IMG/VR virus record: IMGVR_UViG_3300027608_000010 | DNA from: a virus | Taxonomy: Duplodnaviria; Caudoviricetes | Strand: one strand, 5' to 3' | Length of the DNA: 64,000 bases | In this document: one piece after another, positions 24,741 to 61,946 of the stretch | Position numbering within the stretch: the first letter of the stretch is position 1 | Layout: every line of letters starts with the position of its first letter | Made by a program: the position numbers and the translations under genes | The notes under the pieces: generated by a model | What the model was told of the DNA's origin: nothing | Seen by the model: the letters and a program-made list of their open reading frames with translations, nothing else | Databases searched by the model: none

Positions 24741-25754
24741 ATGAACATGATAGTGAAACCTAACACAAAAGAACAATTAGTAGATTTTATGCTAAAGCAT
24801 ATTAGCCTAGGAACCTACGACAAAAAGTTTTTAGACAATTTGCTACACTTAAATTTTGCAGTTAAGAATCCAATTACAACCAATCAAGCCGAGTTGCTCA
24901 ACAAGATTACATCAAGGTATCATAGACAATTCTTAAAAAAGGATTTGAACAGTGAAGAACTAATTCAGTTACCTTGGACACTACAGCCTATTGAGAGCAG
25001 TGTTCAATTTACGCAAGCATACATATCTATAGCGGATGACAAAGACATTGTTATTCATAGTCCTTACAAAAAAGAATTTGTAAAGACACTAAAGGCCCTA
25101 GAATACATGCAGTGGGATAAAGAAAATAAACTTTGGCATACACCCTGTGCTGAATTTAGGTTAAAGAAGTTAATAGAAATATCACATCATAGTTATTCAA
25201 TTGTCAATTACTGTCCTGTTATTGAAGAAATAATGATCCAACTTAAACTATATGAAGAAGTTAAGTATTGGAATCCAACATTGATTGAACGCAATGGTAA
25301 TTACTATGTTGTTGCATGTAACAAAGTACTGTATGAGAAAATCAAAGACATTGACTTGAATGAAGATCCTACAACTATTGCAAAATTAGTGCGCTTGGGT
25401 ATTAAAATTGATGTGGTTGCAGACAAGGTTGCAACAGAATTCAACACACAACTAGAATACTACGATATTAAATATATTATTGAGTCATTACAACGAATAG
25501 GTGCTGACTATGTGATACTAAATCAAATGTACGGTGTCAACAAATCTTATATGATGGAAGTTGCTAATCATTTGAAGGCAAATAAAATCAAACATATGAT
25601 TAGAACTAAAGGCCCAGAATCTTTCAAAGAAGATTTACGACAATATGAAATGCCAGTGAAGTTAAATTTCGGCATGATTAAAGCAGAAGATGGAATAAAA
25701 TACTTAGGAAAAATAATTGGTTTAACAAATAGTGTACCAATCGAGGTCAAATGA
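24741..25754 (+). CDS. Hypothetical protein
   Basis: 337 aa, ATGA overlap with uvsW. Confidence 0.7.
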   Translation: MNMIVKPNTKEQLVDFMLKHISLGTYDKKFLDNLLHLNFAVKNPITTNQAELLNKITSRYHRQFLKKDLNSEELIQLPWTLQPIESSVQFTQAYISIADDKDIVIHSPYKKEFVKTLKALEYMQWDKENKLWHTPCAEFRLKKLIEISHHSYSIVNYCPVIEEIMIQLKLYEEVKYWNPTLIERNGNYYVVACNKVLYEKIKDIDLNEDPTTIAKLVRLGIKIDVVADKVATEFNTQLEYYDIKYIIESLQRIGADYVILNQMYGVNKSYMMEVANHLKANKIKHMIRTKGPESFKEDLRQYEMPVKLNFGMIKAEDGIKYLGKIIGLTNSVPIEVK

Positions 25755-28320: not shown

Positions 28321-28999
28321 GATTAAACATAGTTGTGAATTTTGCAAACGTGAGTTTGTAAAAGAACGCACATTGTTTAGCCATCTATGTGAACAAAAGC
28401 AACGCTGGCAAAATCGTGACCAATTGGGTAATAGATTGGGCTTTCAATCTTGGTTACAATTCTATTCTAAGAATAGCATGAGTAAGACTAAGAACAAAAC
28501 ACATGAAGAATTTATTAAGAACGCTTACTACATTCCCTTTGTGAAGTTTGGTAACTATTGTGCAGATGTAAATGTTATTAATGTGAGTAGATATGTTGAT
28601 TGGTTACTAAAGAACAATATTAAGATTGACAGTTGGATTAGTGATACAACATATACTAGGTTTTTGATAGAATATATACGACATGAAGATCCGTTTGATG
28701 CAATACATCGAGGAGTTGAGACATGTATGCGACTATCAGAAGCAGATAGAATTCAACCACATGATATATTGCGATATGGTAATGCAAACAGAATCTGTTT
28801 AGAAATTACTAAAGGTAAGATTAGTCCCTGGATGCTTTACTGTAGTGATAGCGGTACTAAATTTTTAGATACATTAAGTCCAGAACAAGTAAAAATCATT
28901 ATGGATTACATTAATCCAGAACAATGGGCATTGAAATTTCATCGTGAACCAGACCTTAAACAACAAATTAAAGACACCCTTCGTATCGCAGGCTACTAA
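28295..28999 (+). CDS. Hypothetical protein with N-terminal zinc finger
   Basis: CEFCKREFVKERTLFSHLC. Confidence 0.65.
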   Translation: MKKTTETIEIKHSCEFCKREFVKERTLFSHLCEQKQRWQNRDQLGNRLGFQSWLQFYSKNSMSKTKNKTHEEFIKNAYYIPFVKFGNYCADVNVINVSRYVDWLLKNNIKIDSWISDTTYTRFLIEYIRHEDPFDAIHRGVETCMRLSEADRIQPHDILRYGNANRICLEITKGKISPWMLYCSDSGTKFLDTLSPEQVKIIMDYINPEQWALKFHREPDLKQQIKDTLRIAGY

Positions 29000-29180
29000 A
29001 GTTCGTCTTCCCTGGAAGAAAGGTGATTCTATAGCCCGATGGGACGAAACCTGTATATGGGCTATGGAACAGTTTGGGTTACCCGGAGACAAATATAGTA
29101 CTCATCCCACTGAGAATTATATGGATTTTTATTTCCAAGATGAGAAAGACGCTATACATTTCAGTCTCAGGTGGTTATAA
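28944..29180 (+). CDS. 'FxLRW' family paralogue
   Basis: W.E.C.WAMEQFGLPG...DFYFQDEKDAIHFSLRWL; start uncertain. Confidence 0.7.
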   Translation: MNQTLNNKLKTPFVSQATKVRLPWKKGDSIARWDETCIWAMEQFGLPGDKYSTHPTENYMDFYFQDEKDAIHFSLRWL

Positions 29181-29214
29181 TAGTGTAATATTTGCTTGAC
29201 TAAATATTATACTA

Positions 29215-29859
29215 ATGAAGCCCACAATTGCCCTTTTTGTAGCAGATCCAAAATGCTCAGTACAAAGTTCCAATGGAATAATGAGTTCTTTGGGCAATAA
29301 GTATAACTTCAAATTATTTTCTAAAAATGCCCTAGAAAAAGACTTCTTTAAAGGAGTTGATATGGTTGCTGTTCCTGGAGGATTTGGAGATAGTGACAGT
29401 TATGAGAAACTATTTGAACACAGCGGGAAAAGAGTAATTGACTTTGTTAACAATGGTGGCAGATATCTGGGTATATGCATGGGCGCATATTGGGCAGGTT
29501 CGCACTATTTCTCTTTACTTAAAAGCGTAGATGCTGTACAATATCTCAAGCGCCCGGGAACTGATACACGTAGACCACATGCAAAGAACATGCCTATCAC
29601 TTGGAGAGACGAGCCAATGAAAATGTTCTGGTATGATGGATGTGCATTAGTGGGCGATGACACAAAGTTTGAGACAGTTGCTACTTATAGTAATGGAGAT
29701 GCAATGGCTATATTTCAAAACAGATTAGGATTGATTGGGTGTCACCCAGAGAGTCAACCATTCTGGTATGAAAGCTATAGCTGGATGAAAGCACATTACC
29801 ATGATGGCGTACATCACAAACTTCTATTAAATTTTACGAATGAATTAATGCAACGATGA
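29215..29859 (+). CDS. Stand-alone class I glutamine-amidotransferase-like (BPL_N-type) protein
   Basis: VPGG, YLGICMGAY nucleophile elbow, GCHPE. Confidence 0.75.
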   Translation: MKPTIALFVADPKCSVQSSNGIMSSLGNKYNFKLFSKNALEKDFFKGVDMVAVPGGFGDSDSYEKLFEHSGKRVIDFVNNGGRYLGICMGAYWAGSHYFSLLKSVDAVQYLKRPGTDTRRPHAKNMPITWRDEPMKMFWYDGCALVGDDTKFETVATYSNGDAMAIFQNRLGLIGCHPESQPFWYESYSWMKAHYHDGVHHKLLLNFTNELMQR

Positions 29860-30113
29860 GAGGCTATAATCCGGCAGATGAATCCTTTGAAGAATGGGAT
29901 CGTGACCGAAAAGCTAGAAGATGGAAGTATTGGGCGGCTGTACGAAAATTGAAGGCTCAATTTGATAGAAAAGATTCTAGCTTACTATTCAATCAATGGA
30001 TGTTACAAACATTTGGAATTAGAATCATTTACAATAATGAGGGGCATTTAACTGAAAACTATGAAGTTATTGACGAAAAAAAATATCTATTCTTTGTACT
30101 AAAATACCTATGA
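29856..30113 (+). CDS. 'FxLRW' family paralogue (divergent)
   Basis: Ends YEVIDEKKYLFFVLKYL. Confidence 0.65.
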   Translation: MRGYNPADESFEEWDRDRKARRWKYWAAVRKLKAQFDRKDSSLLFNQWMLQTFGIRIIYNNEGHLTENYEVIDEKKYLFFVLKYL

Positions 30114-30367
30114 CACTAGAAGATGAAATTGTTGAGAGTTTAGCCAGAGAATACTCTGAACAGCTTGACTTTGATATTACAAAAGACTTGTTGACTGATT
30201 CAGGTTGGTACACTATTGAGTTGTCAACGTTGATAAGTAGAGAACAGTCAATTGATATCAAAGATTGGGTATCAGAAAAAGTTAAAGAAGGTTTTGTATC
30301 CAGAGGAAAAACATTTATATTCAAGTCTAAAAAAGAAGCTGAATGGTTCAGTCTGCGATGGCAATGA
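30110..30367 (+). CDS. 'FxLRW' family paralogue
   Basis: DIKDWVSE...FIFKSKKEAEWFSLRWQ. Confidence 0.75.
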   Translation: MTLEDEIVESLAREYSEQLDFDITKDLLTDSGWYTIELSTLISREQSIDIKDWVSEKVKEGFVSRGKTFIFKSKKEAEWFSLRWQ

Positions 30368-30669
30368 TTAAAAAAAGACAAATGACTAATAAGTTATATG
30401 GATCTAACGGCGGTTGGGCGGCAATACGTAGTGTGAACTATGCAGGCATAGGATATGCGTATGACATGCCCTATCATCAGATTGATCCTATAATATCACC
30501 GAATGAATGGAACAAAATGACTGCTTGGTGTGTATCTGTATTCGGACCCAGTGGCACACCCGGCGCACCCGGTGTATGGACGCCCGGTGATAGATGGTAT
30601 GCTAACAATGCTAAGTTTTGGTTTAGAGACAAGCCGGATTGCGAATGGTTTTTATTGAGATGGCAATGA
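30358..30669 (+). CDS. 'FxLRW' family paralogue
   Basis: Start moved to ATG 30358 (MAMIKK); AWCVSVFGP...FWFRDKPDCEWFLLRWQ. Confidence 0.75.
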   Translation: MAMIKKRQMTNKLYGSNGGWAAIRSVNYAGIGYAYDMPYHQIDPIISPNEWNKMTAWCVSVFGPSGTPGAPGVWTPGDRWYANNAKFWFRDKPDCEWFLLRWQ

Positions 30670-30884
30670 TTAATTTAGAAGAATGGAAAATGACTGATAC
30701 GGGTTATGTTCGTACTGTTGAGAGTACGGACATTCTATTGCCATCAGCATTAAGAGCAGACATATACGATTGGTGCTGGGAAAAGAGTATACTTGTAGCA
30801 TTAGAAGGCACAATGGCGGGCATGGATGTTTGGAGTGTCAAAGATGAGAAACAACGTATGTGGTTTCAATTGAGATGGCAATAA
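30660..30884 (+). CDS. 'FxLRW' family paralogue
   Basis: Start moved to ATG 30660 (MAMINL); DIYDWC...VKDEKQRMWFQLRWQ. Confidence 0.75.
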   Translation: MAMINLEEWKMTDTGYVRTVESTDILLPSALRADIYDWCWEKSILVALEGTMAGMDVWSVKDEKQRMWFQLRWQ

Positions 30885-31123
30885 CTATTAAACTTAAAAA
30901 TAGATTAACGGCAAGAGAAGAACAATGGCTAGCAAAGAATATTGGGCCTAGATTGCATTACATTCATAACAGTATCGGTGGACAGGGCTGGATAGCAAAA
31001 CATACATGGGATCCGGGAGTAGTTAATAAACATTGGACTCAGAATTCAAAAAGTAAACATTGGACCCTTACATTTGAAAATGAAAGCTATGCTAGTTTCT
31101 TTTTAATAAAATTTCCACAATGA
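30875..31123 (+). CDS. 'FxLRW' family paralogue
   Basis: Start moved to ATG 30875 (MAITIK); QWLAKNIGP...LTFENESYASFFLIKFPQ. Confidence 0.7.
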   Translation: MAITIKLKNRLTAREEQWLAKNIGPRLHYIHNSIGGQGWIAKHTWDPGVVNKHWTQNSKSKHWTLTFENESYASFFLIKFPQ

Positions 31124-31338
31124 TAACTGTAACTTTAATAGACAAACAACCCAACGAGGTTATGGAAATAGTGCGTGAGTTGCGTAGTAAAGGATATCTC
31201 CAAGGTATTGAATTTGACTTTGAATATCATAAACCCGTTTTTAATGACTGGAGTGGAGATAACGTGTACAATAGATACACTGTATTCAAATTCTATAAAG
31301 AATCACTTGCAACCTGGTTTACACTAAAATATCAATAA
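31120..31338 (+). CDS. 'FxLRW' family paralogue
   Basis: Ends FKFYKESLATWFTLKYQ. Confidence 0.7.
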   Translation: MITVTLIDKQPNEVMEIVRELRSKGYLQGIEFDFEYHKPVFNDWSGDNVYNRYTVFKFYKESLATWFTLKYQ

Positions 31339-31601
31339 TGGCTATACAACATATTAACGGGATATTAAGAAAAGTTTCAGTAGGCCAAGAATTTAAAAGT
31401 GTAGAAGTTACTGGAAACAAAACATATTATAGAATTTATTATGGAAAAAGAAAAGATTATCCGAATGACCATATCAAATGGTGTCGCAGAAATTTAGGTG
31501 AGCGTGGAGTAGGATGGGACTTTACTTTTATATCTAACATGTTGACTATAGAGATATGGGATGATAAATTGAAATTCATGTATGAAATTTGGAAACAATA
31601 A
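31338..31601 (+). CDS. 'FxLRW' family paralogue (divergent)
   Basis: IKWCRRNLG...IEIWDDKLKFMYEIWKQ. Confidence 0.65.
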   Translation: MAIQHINGILRKVSVGQEFKSVEVTGNKTYYRIYYGKRKDYPNDHIKWCRRNLGERGVGWDFTFISNMLTIEIWDDKLKFMYEIWKQ

Positions 31602-31846
31602 TGGAACTGACTCAAAAGAAATATCTATATCCTGGATCAAAAACAACATTTTATACTGTTAATTGGGTCCGTAGCATTGAACACACTAACAAAGATATAC
31701 AGAAATGGTGTAGGAAAACATTCGGCAAACCCGGATACAATGACAAGTTAGAAATGGTTCGTTGGACTGATAATATCAGTGAATCAAATAGCATAACTTT
31801 TTTACAAGAATCAGACTTTATGATGTTTCTATTAAGGTGGCAGTAA
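31601..31846 (+). CDS. 'FxLRW' family paralogue
   Basis: Start moved to the TAATG overlap at 31601; DIQKWCRKTFGKPG...ITFLQESDFMMFLLRWQ. Confidence 0.75.
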   Translation: MELTQKKYLYPGSKTTFYTVNWVRSIEHTNKDIQKWCRKTFGKPGYNDKLEMVRWTDNISESNSITFLQESDFMMFLLRWQ

Positions 31847-31847
31847 T

Positions 31848-32408
31848 ATGGCAATGGATATAATGATAGATATTGAAAGTTTGAACACAACACCTGATTG
31901 TGTTATACTTACAATTGGTGCTGTACGTTTTGATCCTAAAGGTAGTGGGATAGTAGAGAAGTTAGAACTAAGACCTACTATTGAGGATCAAACTGAAATC
32001 TACAATCGTAGCATTAACGAGGATACGTTACGTTGGTGGAGTACTCAAAGCGAGGCTGCACAAGAAGAAGCTATGGGAGATTCTGGACGTGAATCATTGT
32101 CTGACTGCATGGAGAAACTATATAAGTTTTGTTGGAACCGTCGTGCTGTATGGTCGCACGGTGCACCCTTTGACGTTGTTGTCATGGAGTCAGCACTAAG
32201 ACAAACTTCAACTAGACCTAATCCAATACCCTGGGCTTTCTATACAGTAAGAGATACACGAACATTATTTGACATTACTGGAGTAAGTCTTAAAGACGGT
32301 GGACACGTGACTACCCACAAAGCGGTAGAAGATGCTGAACGTCAGGCTATTGTCGTACAGAAAGCGTATATGAAATTAATTAAAGCAGGATTAGTGCCAC
32401 CTAAATGA
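31848..32408 (+). CDS. DEDDh 3'-5' exonuclease
   Basis: IMIDIES (ExoI), WSHGAPFD (ExoII), HKAVEDA (ExoIII). Confidence 0.85.
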   Translation: MAMDIMIDIESLNTTPDCVILTIGAVRFDPKGSGIVEKLELRPTIEDQTEIYNRSINEDTLRWWSTQSEAAQEEAMGDSGRESLSDCMEKLYKFCWNRRAVWSHGAPFDVVVMESALRQTSTRPNPIPWAFYTVRDTRTLFDITGVSLKDGGHVTTHKAVEDAERQAIVVQKAYMKLIKAGLVPPK

Positions 32409-32998
32409 AGTTTCAATCAGATATTGATATTGACTTTGGTAACAGAGATAGTATATTAAAACATATCTCACATATACCTGCGGCAATGCGTAGAGCTAAT
32501 CCTATTCGTAAACATGCAACTGGTATCTATGTGACAGAGATTCCATATGATGCACTACTTGACATGGCTAACATGGACTATAGTGAAGCAGAAAGTCGCG
32601 GGTATCTTAAGTTAGACTTTTTGAACGTGCATGTATATGATAAGGTTCGTGATGAACAGCATTTGATTGAATTGATGCGTGAACCTAATTGGGACAAATT
32701 AAATGATAAAGTATTTGTGGGACAACTGATTCACTTGAGTAACCATTATCATAGTATGCAAAAGATGCAAGATCCTATTAATAGCATACCTAGACTTGCT
32801 ATGATGTTAGCAATAATTAGACCTGCTAAAAAGCATTTAATTGGATTACCTTGGAAAGAAGTTGCAGAAACAGTGTGGGAGAAGAATATAGATGGATACA
32901 GTTTTAAGAAAAGTCATGCAATTTCCTACTCATGGCTTGTTGCAGTGCATATGAATCTATTAGAAGAATTAGGACATCCTCTTGACGAGGGTAATTGA
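32405..32998 (+). CDS. Miniature family-C (DnaE/Pol III alpha-like) polymerase core, 197 aa
   Basis: SDIDIDF, RKHATGIYV, GYLKLDFLNV, LAIIRP and GYSFKKSHAISY occur in DnaE order. Confidence 0.8.
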   Translation: MKFQSDIDIDFGNRDSILKHISHIPAAMRRANPIRKHATGIYVTEIPYDALLDMANMDYSEAESRGYLKLDFLNVHVYDKVRDEQHLIELMREPNWDKLNDKVFVGQLIHLSNHYHSMQKMQDPINSIPRLAMMLAIIRPAKKHLIGLPWKEVAETVWEKNIDGYSFKKSHAISYSWLVAVHMNLLEELGHPLDEGN

Positions 32999-33349
32999 TT
33001 TTCTTTTTGATTTTCTTTTGGCCAATTCTAATATGCTACATATCGGACCATGAACTACGGTGAGACTTTTGTTGTTGAATGTTCTTATATATGGCTTAAA
33101 CATCATCCATTCTTCTTTTAAAAACATATTGATGGGTACTAAACGATTACTCTCCCACCACCATACATCACCTAATTCTAAAAATTTCTCCCTTAGTAAC
33201 TGGTCTACTATTGCCCCGTAATCATAGATAGTTGTAACCACATCATCTCTATTTTGAACAATTCCAACATAATCTTGTCCTGCATAGGAACATATGGTTA
33301 TAAAGGGGTGATTTTTAGTTAGTTTGTTAAAGAATTCGTTTTGAATCAT
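32969..33349 (-). CDS. Hypothetical protein
   Basis: Start moved to ATG 33349; late box upstream at 33370-33377. Confidence 0.7.
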   Translation of the reverse strand: MIQNEFFNKLTKNHPFITICSYAGQDYVGIVQNRDDVVTTIYDYGAIVDQLLREKFLELGDVWWWESNRLVPINMFLKEEWMMFKPYIRTFNNKSLTVVHGPICSILELAKRKSKRKSITLVKRMS

Positions 33350-33369
33350 TATTTTAGTGTTCTCGGATT

Positions 33370-33417
33370 TATTTATCAATTTTATTTGCCCAATGTATTT
33401 AAATTTATTAATAAATA
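33370..33417. promoter_or_regulatory. Divergent late promoters
   Basis: GATAAATA on the minus strand (33370-33377) and AATAAATA on the plus strand (33410-33417). Confidence 0.55.
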
Positions 33418-33435: not shown

Positions 33436-34188
33436 GTGTATTCTACCTCAGTAAGCTATTATATCCCCCGACAAACGGTAGTACTCTATTCAGGATCCTC
33501 ACCTAGGAGTTATCAAACCGTGTATGCTAAAAATTTAAAAATCCATAAAGGAATTGACAATACATTACAATTTCAATTCATAAATCAGGACCAAAAACCA
33601 GTAAACCTGACCGGTAAGTCTATCACTTGTATATTGATGAATTATGATGGTTCTGAAATAATATTACAGAAAACATTGTCATTAGTGTATCCTTTAACAG
33701 GAATAGCAAGTTTAGATGTTCTATCTTTAGAAACACTTGCATTAGATGCTTCTTTATGTCATTACTCATTGACTATACCGATTGGTGCATTTGATTACCC
33801 GGTATTCGTTGATGATAGTTCAGGTGGACGTGGAGTCATTGAGATAGTGAACAGTGTATTACCTAAATTTACACCATCTACACAATTAGAGTTGACGGTC
33901 CATGACACCCCAACAAACATTAATCCAGTAACTTACTACAGTACAACGTACACACCAAAACACAATTCACTATTGACTGTCCAAACAACATTAGATAATT
34001 ACAATGGAACAATTAAGTTTCAAGGATCAGCAACAGGTGTGTCCCAAGAATGGTTCTATTTAGATACTGAAGAAACATATACTGGTTATACCAATATTGA
34101 TTACTTCAATTTAGAAGGTCATTTTCCATACTTTAGAATTGAATTTGCAAGTACTGGTGGAACAGTAGACAAAGTTTTGGTTAGATAA
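33436..34188 (+). CDS. Probable late structural protein (beta-rich)
   Basis: 250 aa, T/Y-rich, late box and AAAGGA SD, non-ATG start. Confidence 0.6.
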   Translation: MYSTSVSYYIPRQTVVLYSGSSPRSYQTVYAKNLKIHKGIDNTLQFQFINQDQKPVNLTGKSITCILMNYDGSEIILQKTLSLVYPLTGIASLDVLSLETLALDASLCHYSLTIPIGAFDYPVFVDDSSGGRGVIEIVNSVLPKFTPSTQLELTVHDTPTNINPVTYYSTTYTPKHNSLLTVQTTLDNYNGTIKFQGSATGVSQEWFYLDTEETYTGYTNIDYFNLEGHFPYFRIEFASTGGTVDKVLVR

Positions 34189-34237: not shown

Positions 34238-35212
34238 ATGTTTGATATACTCTCAATAATACCCGGTCGTAAGAAACAAACAAGCGGTGGTTGGACAAGT
34301 TTCAACGCTATTTGTTGTTCCCATCGCGGGCATAGACCTGATGATAAATTTCGTGGTGGCATCAAATTTGATGGACAAACGAATTGGGTATACCATTGCT
34401 TCAATTGTAGTTATAGTTGCAGTTTTACATTGGGTAGAGTTATCAACGACAAAGCAAGAAAATTCTTACTATGGTGCGGTGTTGATATAGAACAGATTCA
34501 ACTTTGGAGTCTTGAAAGTTTACGCAACAAAGACTTTTTAGATTTCAGTTATCGTAAAAAGGTTCGTGAAACACTTTCATTTAAGACTAGAGAATTACCC
34601 GATGGTGAATTGTTAGATGGCAATAATCCTAATCATAGTGTATTCTTACAATATCTACGAAATAGAAAGATTGATGAAAAACTATTACCCTTCATTGTAA
34701 CACCCAATGATAAGGGTAGACATTCTAATCGTATTGTTATCCCATATACGTATAAGGGAAAGACTGTAGGACACACTAGTAGATTTTTAGATAACAGAAT
34801 ACCTAAGTATATCAACGACCAAGAAGCCGGGTATGTATTTGGATATGACTTTCAGAGACCAGAATGGCAAGCATGTATTCTAGTTGAGGGTATCTTTGAT
34901 GCAATGAGTATACATGGTTGTGCTTTAACACACAATACAATATCAACTGAACAAGCACAGTTATTAGCGCAACTAAACAAGAAAATCATTGTTGTACCTG
35001 ATCGTGATGCTACCGGACTTGAGATATGTGACAAAGCATTAGAGTTTGGGTATAGTGTCAGCTTACCTGATTGGGATAGTTCAGTTAAAGATGTAAATGA
35101 CGCAGTAGTAAAATACGGTAGACTACCTGCGTTACTAAGTATATTAGAAAATGCAACAATGAGTAAGATAAAAATAGAAATGCAGAGGCGTAAAATTGCA
35201 AAAGGATTATAA
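34238..35212 (+). CDS. DNA primase (T4 gp61/DnaG-like)
   Basis: Zn-binding CC...HCFNC; TOPRIM LVEGIFD and VVPDRD; KDVND. Confidence 0.88.
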   Translation: MFDILSIIPGRKKQTSGGWTSFNAICCSHRGHRPDDKFRGGIKFDGQTNWVYHCFNCSYSCSFTLGRVINDKARKFLLWCGVDIEQIQLWSLESLRNKDFLDFSYRKKVRETLSFKTRELPDGELLDGNNPNHSVFLQYLRNRKIDEKLLPFIVTPNDKGRHSNRIVIPYTYKGKTVGHTSRFLDNRIPKYINDQEAGYVFGYDFQRPEWQACILVEGIFDAMSIHGCALTHNTISTEQAQLLAQLNKKIIVVPDRDATGLEICDKALEFGYSVSLPDWDSSVKDVNDAVVKYGRLPALLSILENATMSKIKIEMQRRKIAKGL

Positions 35213-36608
35213 TGTAGAGATTCAGCGGCTCTTTTTAGAGATGATGCTAACAAATGCAGAACTCTATACTAGGGTAATGAATATTATGAATGCACAGAAC
35301 TTTGACAAGGGATTAAGACCTGTGGCAGAGTTTATGGTAGAATATAGTGAGAAATATAGTCTGTTACCTGATATTAAACAGATTTCAGCAACAACAGGAA
35401 CTAACCTAAGTCTAGTCGAAGACTTTGGTGAGAAACATACTGAATGGTTCTTAGAAGAATTTGAATCATTTACTAAACGACAAGAATTAGAACGAGCAAT
35501 TCTTAAAGCAGCCGATTTACTTGAGAAGGGTGAATTCGGACCAGTTGAGAAACTAATCAAGGACGCGGTACAGATTAGTTTGCAACGAGATATGGGTACA
35601 GATTACTTTGCTAATCCCAAAGAACGATTACATAGATATTTCAATGCAGGTGGACAGCAAAGCACAGGCTGGCCGCAACTTGATAGATTGTTATATGGTG
35701 GCTTCAGTCGAGGTGAATTGAATATCTTTGCAGGTGGTTCAGGATCAGGTAAGAGTTTGGTCATGATGAACATCGCATTGAATTGGTTACAAATGGGATT
35801 GAGTGGTGTTTATGTATCGTTAGAACTATCAGAAGAAATGACCTCATTGCGTACTGATGCGATGTTGACAATGATGAGTACCAGAGATATTCGTAGAGAT
35901 ATTGACGGCACTGAACTTAAAGTTAGAATAGCATCTAAGAAAGCAGGTGAATATCGTGTTAAAGGAATGCCTGCACAAAGTAATGTTAACGATATTCGTT
36001 CATACTTAAAAGAAGTACAAATCCAAACTGGAATCAAAGTTGACTTTGTTATGATTGACTATCTTGACTTGGTTATGCCAGTATCAGTTAAAGTCAATCC
36101 TAACGACCAGTTTATTAAAGACAAGTATGTCAGTGAAGAATTACGTAATTTGTCAAAAGAACTAGGTGTATTAATGGTCACTGCAAGTCAATTGAATCGT
36201 AGTGCGGTTGAAGAAATAGAATACGATCATAGTCATATTGCAGGTGGTATCAGTAAGATTAACACAGCAGATAACGTGTTTGGTATCTTTACGAGTCGCA
36301 GTATGAAAGAACGCGGAAAGTATGGAATTCAATGTATGAAAAGTCGTAATTCTACAGGAGTAGGTCAAAAAATTGACCTAGATTATAACATTGAAACTAT
36401 GCGTATTACGGATGAAGACCCGGAAGGATATTCGGATCAGCAAGCAAAATATAGGCCAGCTCCGAGTCCCAACGATATTATGAATCAAGTAAAGCCCCAA
36501 TCTACTGTAGTGGGGGAAAATATACATCTCCCGGAAGAGACAAAGCGTGTAGTAGCAGATGTGCGAGGGGCGACACTTAAATCTTTACTTAAGAATCTCC
36601 AAAATTGA
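35196..36608 (+). CDS. Replicative DnaB-family helicase (T4 gp41-like; TTG start)
   Basis: GGSGSGKS, YVSLE, MIDYLDL, TASQLNR, KSRN. Confidence 0.9.
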   Translation: MQKDYNVEIQRLFLEMMLTNAELYTRVMNIMNAQNFDKGLRPVAEFMVEYSEKYSLLPDIKQISATTGTNLSLVEDFGEKHTEWFLEEFESFTKRQELERAILKAADLLEKGEFGPVEKLIKDAVQISLQRDMGTDYFANPKERLHRYFNAGGQQSTGWPQLDRLLYGGFSRGELNIFAGGSGSGKSLVMMNIALNWLQMGLSGVYVSLELSEEMTSLRTDAMLTMMSTRDIRRDIDGTELKVRIASKKAGEYRVKGMPAQSNVNDIRSYLKEVQIQTGIKVDFVMIDYLDLVMPVSVKVNPNDQFIKDKYVSEELRNLSKELGVLMVTASQLNRSAVEEIEYDHSHIAGGISKINTADNVFGIFTSRSMKERGKYGIQCMKSRNSTGVGQKIDLDYNIETMRITDEDPEGYSDQQAKYRPAPSPNDIMNQVKPQSTVVGENIHLPEETKRVVADVRGATLKSLLKNLQN

Positions 36609-38085: not shown

Positions 38086-38560
38086 AAACGACAAATTATT
38101 TTCTATTCTGACTAGGATGTTCAGTAAAGAAAAGCTATCAAAATTAGAACGTGAAATCATTTATCAGGATCCTGACGGAACATATAGACTGTACGGTGAT
38201 TATTCTATCAAAAAAAATGATGACGGATATCTAATGACTAAAGATGCAACATACACTAGTCATACTTTTACTGAGTTAAAGAATGCAGTAACTTGGATCA
38301 CGTTTGATAAATCTAATTATATTATGGATGCTGCCCGAGTTCTTTACTTAGACAGTATTCTTTCAGGAACACTGGAAAATCTAAAACTACATCAAAAATT
38401 AGCTAAGTCTGGGAAGAACCTAGAAGCTAGGACTATCATTTTGACTAAGTTGAACGAAGATATGCTCAAAAAGCAGAAACTTCTATCAGAATTAGAGAAT
38501 TTTATAGACAAGGCCAATGCTTGGCAACATAAACAATTTGCGCTAAACTCCGCAAAATAA
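38072..38560 (+). CDS. Hypothetical late protein (coiled-coil C-half)
   Basis: 162 aa, overlaps the upstream gene. Confidence 0.7.
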   Translation: MMVSKNDKLFSILTRMFSKEKLSKLEREIIYQDPDGTYRLYGDYSIKKNDDGYLMTKDATYTSHTFTELKNAVTWITFDKSNYIMDAARVLYLDSILSGTLENLKLHQKLAKSGKNLEARTIILTKLNEDMLKKQKLLSELENFIDKANAWQHKQFALNSAK

Positions 38561-58591: not shown

Positions 58592-58809
58592 TCGACTTTA
58601 CTTCTACCCAACTCAGTTGGATACTCATCGGGGCTTGCAGTATAGGCGGTACTGGTTACATGTCTGTGGATACTAAAATTAAAGAGTTAGATACCAGTGT
58701 ACAAATATCAAGTGCAAAAATGGATGACATGAAAACAAATATGTCTGAGTTACAAAAACAATTAACTCGCATGGAAGACAAACTAGATAGAAAACAAGGA
58801 TCAAAATAA
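58588..58809 (+). CDS. Small TM plus coiled-coil protein
   Basis: LSWILIGACSIGGTGY hydrophobic segment followed by heptads. Confidence 0.55.
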   Translation: MIDFTSTQLSWILIGACSIGGTGYMSVDTKIKELDTSVQISSAKMDDMKTNMSELQKQLTRMEDKLDRKQGSK

Positions 58810-61800
58810 TGGATTTTAAATCATTACTACAAACAATGGATAATATAAGTGAAACTGTACACAAAGCAGGTCCGGGCGGATATGGTAATCGTCATGGTAC
58901 AGAAACACAAACTGACCAATACGGTAAGCCGATTGGTAAAGTAAGTTTAGCTAAGATGGGTCCTAAAGATGATACACCTAAGAAACGTGGCGCACCTGTA
59001 AAGGCTGACAAGCCGTTGACAGGTAAAGATGATCCAAAAAATAAAAAAGTAGGTGACTTGTTTGGTCGCACTACCGGTGATGTACCAGCAGGTAAAAAAG
59101 GTACAAAAGTTTCTAAGATGGACGCCGCCGATAAGGAAGAAAAGAAAAAAGAAAAAACTGAAAAGAAAAGTTTAAAAGATTGGATTGAAGTATCTGAGCA
59201 CAATCAATTGAATGAAGAAGATGTTTCAGTCAAACCAATTCAAGCAAGTCAAATCATTGGTCAAGATGGTAAGTCAATGGGAACTGCTGATCCTGCAACT
59301 GCCAATGCTATTAAAGCGGCAGCTGAAAAAGGTACATTGAATTTGTCAGGTGATGATAGTAGTACTACTTCTAATAGCACTAGTTCACAACCAATGACTG
59401 AAAAATCTGACAAGCCAGTTAAAACTGACGCTTCAGCAGAAGGCAAGTATAAAGGCAAAAGTAAAAGCGAATTACTAAAAGCATTTAAGCATTTAAAGAA
59501 AACTGGACCTCATGAAAAAGATAGCACACAGTATAAAAACATGAAAGAATTAGCAGTTGCTATTCGTGCTAAGGGCGTCTCGGGTAAAGAAAAAGAAGAA
59601 CCGGTATCAGAAGGTGGGTACAGAGGTCGTGACGCTTACAGCCGAGACGAGTATTCGGCAACTACAGGCTTTGATAAGAAGGATTCTCAAGCATATCAAC
59701 AAGACGGTGGAGCCAATGATGAAGGTTGGGAAGATGAAAAACCTAAATATCCTAGAACATCTGATCGTATGAGACAAGCACAGCAACGCCATTATGGATT
59801 TAAACGCCCTAGTTCAGAATCTATTGGTGAAGGCGAAGGTAACTTTGAACAACAGGAAGAAGCGTATGTTGCCTGCATAGTGCAACATAACCGTTCAGGC
59901 CAAGCAGTTGTACAAAGAACAAAACCTATAAGTCGTGACCGAGCAGAAGAAGTAATTAAACATGCTCTTTCTAAAAATACATTTGTACACCCTCCATTCA
60001 TGACTATTTACCCAGCAAGTGCTGGTAAGTTAGACGGCTCAACTATTATGGCTCAATTTCCTGATATGAGTCAAGAAGCAGGTCCTGCTAATACTGGTAT
60101 GATGGAAGGTAAAGAAAAAACTAAGGCAAAAGACTTACCAGGTGATCAAGATGAATTAGATGTTGCACCACCAAAAGGTAAGTTAACTGGTGCAGACTTT
60201 AAAGCATTGTCAAAAAAGAAAAAAGTTAAAGAAGATCGTACTATGCAAATATTAGAAGGCATCAACTTTAAAGAATTAATGGCTTCAGCAGATTCAGAAG
60301 TACAAGAAATGTTGATTGAATTGCAAGATGATGTAGAGATGTTTAAAAAGACAGGTCACACATCTGAATTGATAGATTCATTCTTAAAAGTACATTTGCA
60401 TCACAGTAAAAAGAGAATTACAGATGAAGCCGCAGGCGCAGGACGTGGTTCAGTAAATCCACCGGCAGTTAATCCTTCAGCACCCTTGCCACCAGCAAGA
60501 TCCGCTGCACCAGGATGGGGCAGAGATGACTATAAACCTTTAGTACCTGACACCTCACCTAGACCAGCAATGGGCACCATCAAAGGTGGTGTATGGAATG
60601 CTGATCCTCCTAAGCCAGGTGAAAGAGGAGTACCCGTTCCAATGGATCCAGAAGGCGTTAAAGAAGGTAATTTTTTAAGTACATTAGGTCAATCTAATAA
60701 AACATTCGAAAGTAAAAAAATGAAAGATATTCAATTAGAAAACTGGGAAAAAGAATTAAATTCTTTACTAACTATCAATGAAGGCATTACTGTATCTACA
60801 AGTACTGGTCAACAAGGTTCACCTGACTCAGTTAGCGTTAATGCAACTGACGGAGATTCAGCAGAATTGTTACAAGTCCTACGTCAAGCTGGCTTAGGAG
60901 TGTTTGGTGGCGAAGAAGAACGTAGTAGTTACGGCTCACCAATGCACAGTCATGAACCAACAGGAGCTGGTTCTGAACCAGAAATGAGTCCAGCGGTAGT
61001 TGGAGACGGTGATGATATGATGGCATTGATTAAGAAAATGTCAGGTATACAAGATAGCGGCGATCAAGGAAGTGAAGAACCAGAAGGCGTTGCAGTAGTT
61101 GATTTTTCAAGTGAAGAAGGTTCAGAAGAAGATGATGAGCAAGCAAAACACGGTTCTGATGGTCATAGCCATGAAGAATCAGATGACGAAGGTGAAGAAA
61201 TTTCAGAATTAAGAGCAGAATATCCAGGTGGTAGCACAGATTTTAACACAGGTGAAGTTAAAACAACCGGAGCAACCAATGAAGATGAAATGGAAGAAGG
61301 TAATGCTTTTGGAAACGAAGTTCGCCAAAAGAAATCAGACAATATTCCTGATAGCCAACAACGCATCACAACAGGTGGACAAAATCTTCCAGTAAAAGAA
61401 GAAGGTCATCACCACGAAGAAGGTGGTACATGTAACGAATGCGGTATGTATGAAGCACGTTGTGTTTGTGAGCCGGGTAAAGAACAAGTTGAAGAAGAAC
61501 AACTAGATGAACTAAGTCCCAAGTTGATGCAAAAAGCGGTAAACAAATCAAACGCTATGATGAACAAGAGTTACCAAGATAAAGATCATAATGCCACAAC
61601 TGATTATGCAAATCAAAGTACTAGAATACAGCATGGCATGGATAAAAGAGCAGGTAAACCTACCGACTTCACTGGAAACAGTAACCATTACGTAAAAAAT
61701 GAACCAGGTGCTAATACAGCTAAAGGATCTCGTATGCCTGTTGGAATGGCAGAAGATTACGCAAACGAAGCTGGTCATGAAGAAATGGCTAGTTTAAAGC

Positions 61801-61946
61801 ATTTGTTAAACGTGGGCAATGATATGCACTACCCTAAAGAAAAACAATCTGTTGGCAATCCAACTAAAGTAACATATGAAACAAAGTTATTGAAAGATTC
61901 AACAAGTCTATTACACGACTTTAGAAAATTAAGCGGAATAAAATAA
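58809..61946 (+). CDS. Modular acidic polyprotein-like head protein (1045 aa)
   Basis: Many hydrophobic-X-E sites; MALIKKMSGI and terminal DFRKLSGIK helices; CNECG...CVC motif. Confidence 0.75.
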   Translation: MDFKSLLQTMDNISETVHKAGPGGYGNRHGTETQTDQYGKPIGKVSLAKMGPKDDTPKKRGAPVKADKPLTGKDDPKNKKVGDLFGRTTGDVPAGKKGTKVSKMDAADKEEKKKEKTEKKSLKDWIEVSEHNQLNEEDVSVKPIQASQIIGQDGKSMGTADPATANAIKAAAEKGTLNLSGDDSSTTSNSTSSQPMTEKSDKPVKTDASAEGKYKGKSKSELLKAFKHLKKTGPHEKDSTQYKNMKELAVAIRAKGVSGKEKEEPVSEGGYRGRDAYSRDEYSATTGFDKKDSQAYQQDGGANDEGWEDEKPKYPRTSDRMRQAQQRHYGFKRPSSESIGEGEGNFEQQEEAYVACIVQHNRSGQAVVQRTKPISRDRAEEVIKHALSKNTFVHPPFMTIYPASAGKLDGSTIMAQFPDMSQEAGPANTGMMEGKEKTKAKDLPGDQDELDVAPPKGKLTGADFKALSKKKKVKEDRTMQILEGINFKELMASADSEVQEMLIELQDDVEMFKKTGHTSELIDSFLKVHLHHSKKRITDEAAGAGRGSVNPPAVNPSAPLPPARSAAPGWGRDDYKPLVPDTSPRPAMGTIKGGVWNADPPKPGERGVPVPMDPEGVKEGNFLSTLGQSNKTFESKKMKDIQLENWEKELNSLLTINEGITVSTSTGQQGSPDSVSVNATDGDSAELLQVLRQAGLGVFGGEEERSSYGSPMHSHEPTGAGSEPEMSPAVVGDGDDMMALIKKMSGIQDSGDQGSEEPEGVAVVDFSSEEGSEEDDEQAKHGSDGHSHEESDDEGEEISELRAEYPGGSTDFNTGEVKTTGATNEDEMEEGNAFGNEVRQKKSDNIPDSQQRITTGGQNLPVKEEGHHHEEGGTCNECGMYEARCVCEPGKEQVEEEQLDELSPKLMQKAVNKSNAMMNKSYQDKDHNATTDYANQSTRIQHGMDKRAGKPTDFTGNSNHYVKNEPGANTAKGSRMPVGMAEDYANEAGHEEMASLKHLLNVGNDMHYPKEKQSVGNPTKVTYETKLLKDSTSLLHDFRKLSGIK

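Follow-up and report, generated by a model that had tools for sequence, protein, structure and literature searches.

A gene for a 197-amino-acid protein lies near the middle of a 64,000-nt stretch of viral DNA (IMG/VR record IMGVR_UViG_3300027608_000010; we refer to this whole stretch as the window, and coordinates are on its scale). With a probability of roughly 0.78, we assign this open reading frame (ORF) as one subunit of a two-subunit miniature family-C DNA polymerase from an uncultured freshwater T4-like jumbo phage of 'group 2.2', namely the C-terminal half (C-half) of a split minimal DNA polymerase III (Pol III) alpha subunit, of which the N-terminal half (N-half) is encoded elsewhere. 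The system is already published and annotated in RefSeq phage genomes; the lake jumbo phage studied here, which is uncultured, contributes one new member. New in this analysis are a natural single-chain fusion of the two halves, a clade-specific but dispensable adjacency to a DexA-like exonuclease gene, figures for invariance and selection, and a structural mapping of the enzyme to residues 278–773 of E. coli alpha.

Motifs, conservation and fold of the C-terminal half

The original prediction, made from the letters of the DNA, had named five DnaE signatures in the correct order within the 197 residues, and we located all of them: SDIDIDF at residues 5–11, RKHATGIYV at 35–43, GYLKLDFLN at 66–74, LAIIRP at 135–140 and GYSFKKSHAISY at 164–175. 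The spacing that it gave between the DxD and KH motifs, about 25 residues, was likewise accurate (25 residues from D10 to K36), and its claim that equivalents of E. coli D401, D403 and D555 are retained was borne out both by a profile alignment to the E. coli protein and by conservation. Among 84 diverse homologues (29–92% identity), D6, D8, K69, D71 and P140 were invariant, and D10, H37, G40, R139, K168 and H171 were conserved in at least 90%; the last 10 residues were variable in this alignment and were modeled with low confidence. Compared with its two nearest relatives, the gene had a ratio of nonsynonymous to synonymous substitution rates (dN/dS) of 0.064–0.075, at dS values of 0.54–0.76 that were unsaturated. 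The invariance of the catalytic aspartates together with this low ratio indicates that the C-half is under purifying selection.

Searches for relatives succeeded only at the protein level: blastn with the exonuclease and C-half genes found no match among cultured phages, and Pfam returned no significant family for the 197-residue protein, including no PHP, HhH or OB domain. When compared with PHROGs, the C-half matched phrog_11778 ('DNA polymerase') at 5.3e-52, with residues 2–188 aligned to profile positions 4–193 of 197, and it gave short local matches to families of full-length DnaE, such as one to positions 773–809 of phrog_405 in the FKKSH region. Using tblastn, we found same-length homologues with 35–45% identity in 96 cultured jumbo-phage records, among them those of PA5oct, Atu_ph07, RaK2, 121Q, GAP32, SCTP-2 and XaC1. 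All but two of these matches (94 of 96) covered at least 80% of the C-half, and several of the homologues carry the annotation 'DNA polymerase' or 'DNA polymerase III alpha'. In a metagenome protein collection, homologues of ~190–200 residues make up at least 7,948 clusters, and a library built at 50% identity contains 354 representative clusters. The recurrence of a same-length protein in so many clusters rules out that the gene is a product of a frameshift or of an assembly error joining it to a longer gene.

A family profile built from the C-half alignment matched E. coli Pol III alpha in the PDB at 1.3e-5, placing K69 and D71 on K553 and D555, R139-P140 on R639-P640, and FKKSH on FNKSH at 756–760; the DxD motif was placed on P400–F406, which contains D401 and D403, although this segment has no score on its own. 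The AlphaFold model of the C-half (predicted local distance difference test score, pLDDT, 94.9; predicted template-modeling score 0.87) pointed the same way. The ten best PDB matches to this model in a Foldseek search were all Pol III alpha, the top eight with a probability of ~1 and the best with an E value of 3.5e-3. Structural alignment with VIA-align put 194 of the 197 residues on Taq alpha 458–849 (Z 9.8; root-mean-square deviation, rmsd, 3.6), followed by M. tuberculosis DnaE1 (Z 9.4) and E. coli alpha 397–791 (Z 7.8), whereas the first unrelated fold reached only Z 3.5. Taken together, these matches greatly exceed what chance would give.

The same comparisons delimit what the enzyme has lost. 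No thumb is present between the DxD and KH strands, which are separated by 25 residues as opposed to ~105 in E. coli, and in the model this interval holds just one short helix and one strand. A further ~85 residues are missing between the RP and FKKSH motifs relative to E. coli alpha, and the C-half ends at the equivalent of E. coli residues 773–791, so that by structural alignment and Pfam it contains no clamp-binding, HhH or OB module; beyond approximately residue 790, the distal fingers, clamp-binding motif, HhH, OB fold and tau-binding region are all missing. Neither half has a Pfam match to the PHP domain, and the structural alignment begins at E. coli residue 278, past that domain. The domain limits of E. 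coli alpha reportedly derive from the structures that Lamers and colleagues and Bailey and colleagues described in 2006. The absence of PHP, HhH, clamp-binding and OB regions had been correctly noted before, and the thumb can be added to that list. What is present is a Pol-beta-type palm with its three catalytic aspartates and the GS loop, spread across two chains.

The N-terminal half and a natural fusion

A search for the N-half inside the 64-kb window did not find it. We found it instead in another viral record, G001, which is 98–99% identical to positions 38232–64000 of the window (25.8 kb) and extends 15.7 kb further; because G001 begins at position 38232, it contains no C-half. The N-half is a 168-residue ORF (L003:1213–1719) located 7.7 kb beyond the window end, which corresponds to ~71.74–72.25 kb on the window scale and lies 38.7 kb downstream of the C-half on the same strand. 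It matched Pfam PF07733 with 35.8 bits (cut-off 23.9), a family that recognizes only this half, and phrog_11127 at 7.8e-41. Its GVGRGSS loop and terminal EF[LI]K are invariant, and the G001 copy ends in ...IDEFLK. Both halves were present in all seven larger relatives that we checked, separated by 43 kb in PA5oct, by 31 kb in 121Q and by 35–46 kb in five IMG/VR contigs of 171–360 kb. The N-half also occurs in 79 cultured-phage records, from the same taxa as the C-half. Thus, a complementary fragment of the kind that the original prediction suggested looking for does exist.

The two halves meet within the catalytic domain. The N-half ends in ...EFLK and the C-half begins with MKFQSDIDIDF, 5 residues before the DxD motif, which places the split point in the loop just before E. 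coli D401 and the first catalytic strand. Because the break precedes this strand, neither half has a whole active site. The idea that 197 residues comprise an entire polymerase core therefore had to be abandoned, as the NTP-binding helix and GS motif sit on the separate 168-residue protein.

An exhaustive search of representative clusters revealed that the two halves also occur as one chain. The protein P0161, encoded on a 2.4-kb metagenome contig, has 375 residues and consists of an N-half (37% identical to ours; E value 1e-24), a 9-residue linker and a C-half (40% identical), and its gene is followed by the usual convergent ORF. The model of P0161 had a mean pLDDT of 70, with residues 82–375 mostly above 70, and only family-C polymerases appeared at the top of its Foldseek matches (E value 1e-6). 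Residues 80–375 aligned as one body with residues 305–800 of DnaE1 (Z 18.4, 280 residues, rmsd 3.9), with PolC (Z 18.0) and with E. coli alpha 278–773 (Z 15.0), as compared to Z 4.1 for the next fold, that of a CCA-adding enzyme. At ~365 residues in two chains, or 375 in the natural fusion, this is the smallest known family-C polymerase core.

Conservation extends to residues 1–80 of the N-half (L003:1213–1450 in G001), in which D4, E13 and D15 are near-invariant. This part, which precedes the palm alignment on its N-terminal side, has no Pfam match and adopts a low-confidence fold in the model of the fusion.

A separate search for longer homologues of the C-half returned just one chimeric ORF. 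The 425-residue metagenome protein P0271, from a 1.4-kb contig, is a C-half homologue without the first ~45 residues, including DxD, in place of which it has a 275-residue part matching Pfam PF28514; it resembles a mobile-element ORF of the intron or homing type that reads through into the second exon of a polymerase gene.

The split enzyme shares its two-gene architecture, protein lengths, motifs, split point, local synteny and co-occurrence with a family B polymerase with the split Pol III alpha of group 2.2 (PHROGs 11778 and 11127), for which example genes are 16 and 56 of 121Q and EST35_0220 and EST35_0288 of PA5oct (Iyer et al., 2021, Viruses 13:63, PMC7824862). It differs from the cultured members in that its C-half is only 35–45% identical to theirs and falls within an uncultured freshwater clade of very large size, in which a DexA-like exonuclease gene is usually immediately upstream; none was found within 6 kb in PA5oct or 121Q. 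With bacterial DnaE and PolC (2HNH and 5FKW; Taq, 3E0D; M. tuberculosis, 5LEW; Geobacillus PolC, 3F2B) it has in common a homologous palm and proximal fingers, including the catalytic triad, GS loop, K-x-D strand, RP and F-x-K-S-H. Those enzymes, however, are single chains of 1,000–1,450 residues, and the PHP, thumb, distal fingers, clamp-binding motif, HhH, OB and tau- and epsilon-binding parts that they possess are absent from the ~365 residues of the split enzyme, which, unlike full-length DnaE or PolC, would not be the replicase of its genome.

Assembly of a family-C polymerase from two distant genes is also known from the DnaE-N and DnaE-C of cyanobacteria such as Synechocystis and Nostoc. 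The cyanobacterial halves carry pieces of a split intein and are spliced into one full-length chain. The phage halves differ in having no room for intein fragments, and the natural fusion needs a linker of only 9 residues; lacking such pieces, the phage halves must associate non-covalently.

The adjacent exonuclease and the role of the pair

The gene preceding the C-half encodes a protein that resembles T4 DexA (exonuclease A) and Rv2179c-like nucleases. It matched Pfam PF16473 at 4.5e-32 (111.6 bits; cut-off 27) and phrog_255 at 4.7e-38, its profile matched T4 DexA (8KEL) in the PDB at 1.6e-7, and its DEDDh residues (D8, E10, D109, H157 and D162) were invariant in 44 relatives. With 186 residues it is shorter than T4 DexA (227 residues), it is only 22–25% identical to the products of T4-type dexA genes, and in T4, unlike in the window, the gene does not directly precede one for a polymerase. 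Its dN/dS was 0.08. The junction between the two genes reads CCACCTAAATGAAGTTT, in which the TGA stop and the following ATG share ATGA, as expected from the reported overlap with an intact exonuclease gene. Since the closest AGGA precedes the C-half ATG by 14 nt, translational coupling by re-initiation seems plausible. However, four-base overlaps are routine between unrelated neighbors in the window (for example, at 25751, 29856, 30110 and 31120), so the ATGA overlap reflects tight operon packing and is no demonstration of a functional partnership.

The exonuclease/C-half junction is a variable cargo site. The closest large relative, a 171-kb IMG/VR contig, has three sugar-nucleotide-type genes at this site (L016:831–3017), one resembling NAD-dependent dehydratases or epimerases, one resembling cytidylyltransferases and containing an FxxxHxGH motif, and a second that is epimerase- or reductase-like; each overlaps its neighbors, the last one overlapping the C-half of that contig. 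A related arrangement, in which the exonuclease is followed by a cytidylyltransferase-like gene, occurs on a contig that comes from an RNA library and belongs to another strain.

We propose that the C-half would supply the beta-sheet with the metal-binding residues D6, D8 and D71 together with cut-down fingers (RP and FKKSH), that the N-half would supply the helices and the GVGRGSS nucleotide-binding loop, and that the non-covalent pair would thereby rebuild a palm and proximal fingers of ~365 residues, equivalent to E. coli alpha 278–773, with no thumb. Judged from the models, such a pair would be expected to bind a deoxynucleoside triphosphate (dNTP) and metal and to catalyze nucleotidyl transfer but to hold DNA poorly. 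Its most likely activity, we infer, would be the distributive synthesis of short templated stretches of DNA alongside the main replicase, for which primer extension, gap filling and repair are candidates. An accessory role is suggested because the pair has no thumb, PHP, clamp-binding, HhH or OB part and because its relatives encode a family B replicase: two complete relatives of 352 and 360 kb encode such a polymerase in an ORF of 914–929 residues, as does the closest large relative, and family B polymerases occur also in PA5oct and 121Q, although none was seen within the 64-kb window. Iyer et al. (2021; PMC7824862), who described the split minimal Pol III alpha beside a family B polymerase in group 2.2 jumbo phages, regarded the B-family enzyme as the primary replicase and also suggested an accessory short-patch role for the split enzyme.

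One alternative assigns the polymerase a third piece, with the DexA-like exonuclease of the lake-phage clade serving as a dedicated proofreader kept in a fixed ratio by the ATGA overlap. An editing domain is missing from the mini polymerase, which has neither PHP nor epsilon, and the exonuclease has an intact, invariant set of DEDDh residues and is under purifying selection similar to that of the C-half. In the 73 IMG/VR relatives for which sufficient upstream sequence is available, its gene directly abuts that of the C-half in 43 (with an NTGA overlap in 34) and is 270–2,170 nt upstream in another 21. Nevertheless, no exonuclease lies within 1.3–3 kb in 9 of the 73, and three sugar-nucleotide genes separate the exonuclease from the C-half in the closest large relative, where the latter overlaps a different gene. 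In PA5oct and 121Q we detected no homologue within 6 kb before the C-half, nor elsewhere in those records, where a quick look gave weak evidence. Moreover, the exonuclease has homologues in 637 phage records that span every morphotype, the annotated dexA of T4-like phages among them, and nearly all of these records are without the mini polymerase. In E. coli, the PHP domain provides the docking site for the epsilon subunit, and this domain is absent here. A predicted complex of the N-half and C-half with the exonuclease as partner scored 0.00, a score that left out the contact between the halves and weighs neither way. With the frequency of four-base overlaps also counting against it, the three-piece arrangement is unlikely, and the separate proofreader of the original prediction finds support no further than adjacency, in a family that is widespread and with an adjacency that is broken in close relatives. 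An extension of this idea, in which the halves and the coupled exonuclease constitute a self-contained three-subunit polymerase–proofreader that extends primers at the primase–helicase before a hand-off to the family B enzyme, is quite unlikely; if true, it would provide a phage analogue of the hand-off from DnaE to PolC in B. subtilis or from Pol alpha to Pol delta in eukaryotes. Our reading of the exonuclease is that it is a DexA-type nuclease encoded by the preceding gene of a tightly packed operon, which may help the polymerase but is not its defining partner.

A second alternative holds that the C-half, alone or with the N-half, has been repurposed as a nucleotidyltransferase, such as a terminal transferase or a primer-independent or nucleotide-signal synthase. 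The Pol-beta-type palm is common to CCA-adding enzymes, alarmone synthetases and CD-NTases, which appear as structural neighbors at Z 3–4, and an enzyme that is non-processive or works without a template could well do without the thumb and all DNA- and clamp-binding modules. But the protein keeps RP and FKKSH, the finger motifs that set family C apart from other transferases with a Pol-beta fold, at a conservation of at least 90%, and the match to Pol III alpha and PolC reaches Z 18 compared with ~4 for any other transferase. The C-half, having no GS loop, cannot act alone, and it always co-occurs with the N-half. This strict co-occurrence and the natural fusion speak against the stand-alone transferase of the original prediction, and we consider the repurposing highly unlikely in either form. 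Still less credible is the possibility that the split enzyme is a minimal family-C main replicase of the phage, for which one could cite the placement of its genes in replication clusters (with primase and helicase, and with a clamp loader). The family B polymerase of 914–929 residues in the complete relatives of 352–360 kb, PA5oct and 121Q, the assignment of the B-family enzyme as primary replicase (Iyer et al., 2021, PMC7824862) and the fact that we found no thumb, clamp-binding motif or processivity module make this extremely improbable. The original proposal of a piece of a split family-C replicase thus held with respect to the split, the N-half being encoded elsewhere, but not with respect to the replicase.

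Several considerations weigh against a two-subunit accessory polymerase. With neither a thumb nor contact to a clamp, the enzyme might be unable to hold primer-template DNA at all, and no fold is assigned to the first ~80 residues of the N-half. Our evidence for the N-half and for the family B polymerase comes from near-identical or related contigs rather than from this exact genome. The conserved synteny includes virion genes, which makes the neighborhood weak evidence for a role in the replisome. Finally, we found no biochemical study of any member in the searchable literature, and we infer its activity, template dependence and substrate. The search yielded only Iyer et al. (2021) on the split enzyme; papers on PaBG and surveys of bacterial polymerases are silent on it.

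A two-subunit family-C polymerase that is both abundant and strongly conserved could reveal the minimal requirements for Pol III-type catalysis and could explain the retention, in some T4-like giant phages, of a second polymerase of bacterial type alongside a eukaryote-like one. The practical outcome is a corrected annotation, that of half of a known split enzyme with a DexA-type neighbor rather than of a stand-alone mini polymerase.

Gene neighborhood and occurrence

The window is AT-rich (35–43% G+C) and contains T4-like genes for a large terminase, a tail sheath, a gp15-like protein, a UvsW-like helicase, a Toprim primase and a gp41/DnaB-like helicase. The order of C-half, convergent ORF, virion protein, primase and helicase is conserved in 80 IMG/VR loci, PA5oct and 121Q, and the N-half is followed by a small ORF, a GroES-like gene and a gp44-like clamp loader in G001, PA5oct and 121Q. 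A scan of the region for promoters and terminators gave site counts that were not above the expectation from shuffled sequence.

Positions of genes, motif codons and other features around the C-half gene in the window
Feature	Position	Strand	Basis or remark
DexA / Rv2179c-like DEDDh 3'-5' exonuclease, 186 aa	31848..32408	+	PF16473, phrog_255, 8KEL
ATGA overlap of C-half start codon and exonuclease stop codon	32405..32408	+	sequence read
C-terminal half (catalytic Asp, metal- and template-binding) of split minimal DNA polymerase III alpha, 197 aa	32405..32998	+	
DxD metal-ligand codons D6-I-D8-I-D10 (equivalents of E. coli D401/D403)	32420..32434	+	conservation, hidden Markov model alignment
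K69-L-D71 codons with third catalytic Asp (equivalents of E. coli K553/D555)	32609..32617	+	conservation, hidden Markov model alignment
Finger motif LAIIRP, R139-P140 codons (E. coli R639-P640)	32819..32824	+	conservation, alignment
Finger motif FKKSH, K168-K-S-H171 codons (E. coli N757-K758-S759-H760)	32906..32917	+	conservation, alignment
Possible weak terminator-like hairpin at 3' end of C-half gene	32976..32992	+	possibility only
Convergent small ORF, function unknown	32969..33379	-	phrog_11637, 1.5e-30; 3' end overlaps C-half by 30 nt
Virion-protein-like gene	33436..34188	+	phrog_1084; syntenic PA5oct/121Q genes annotated structural
DnaG/Toprim-type primase	34238..35212	+	Toprim_2, DNAG_N; phrog_47, 1e-36
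DnaB / T4 gp41-like replicative helicase	35196..36608	+	DnaB_C, 2.5e-20; phrog_19, 2.1e-70

The convergent small ORF keeps its position and orientation throughout the 80 IMG/VR relatives and in PA5oct and 121Q (33–35% identity), and its product could be that of a conserved core gene or an accessory factor. Its true start is probably 10 codons further in; the corresponding Atlas record begins at residue 11, and an Atlas look-up with this ORF gave no usable match.

Each polymerase half is represented by at least 7,900 sequence clusters, mostly from freshwater metagenomes. The 1.15-kb stretch containing the exonuclease and C-half genes recurs nearly word for word in at least 14 freshwater or lake DNA runs dating from 2017 to 2025 and is partly matched in six lake metatranscriptome libraries. 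Contigs from lake RNA libraries contain short exact-match pieces of both genes, for which DNA carry-over is possible, and among these contigs we found none of the same strain that bridges the junction at 32405.

Directly upstream of the exonuclease gene, positions 28944–31846 hold a tandem array of approximately nine ORFs of 72–108 residues, most of which end in ...[FL]xLRWQ or ...LKYQ and have overlapping stop/start junctions; two members searched against PHROGs had no match. Inside this array, 29215–29859 (+) encodes a 214-residue protein with similarity to class-I glutamine amidotransferases and BPL_N (PF09825 at 6.9e-11 and PF00117 at 7.5e-5), an unusual auxiliary gene for a phage. Elsewhere in the window, identity to G001 falls to 88–96%, with gaps, over 58850–61511, within a 1045-residue ORF (58809–61946). 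This ORF has no Pfam matches and is locally hypervariable, possibly as a host-recognition or otherwise diversifying gene.

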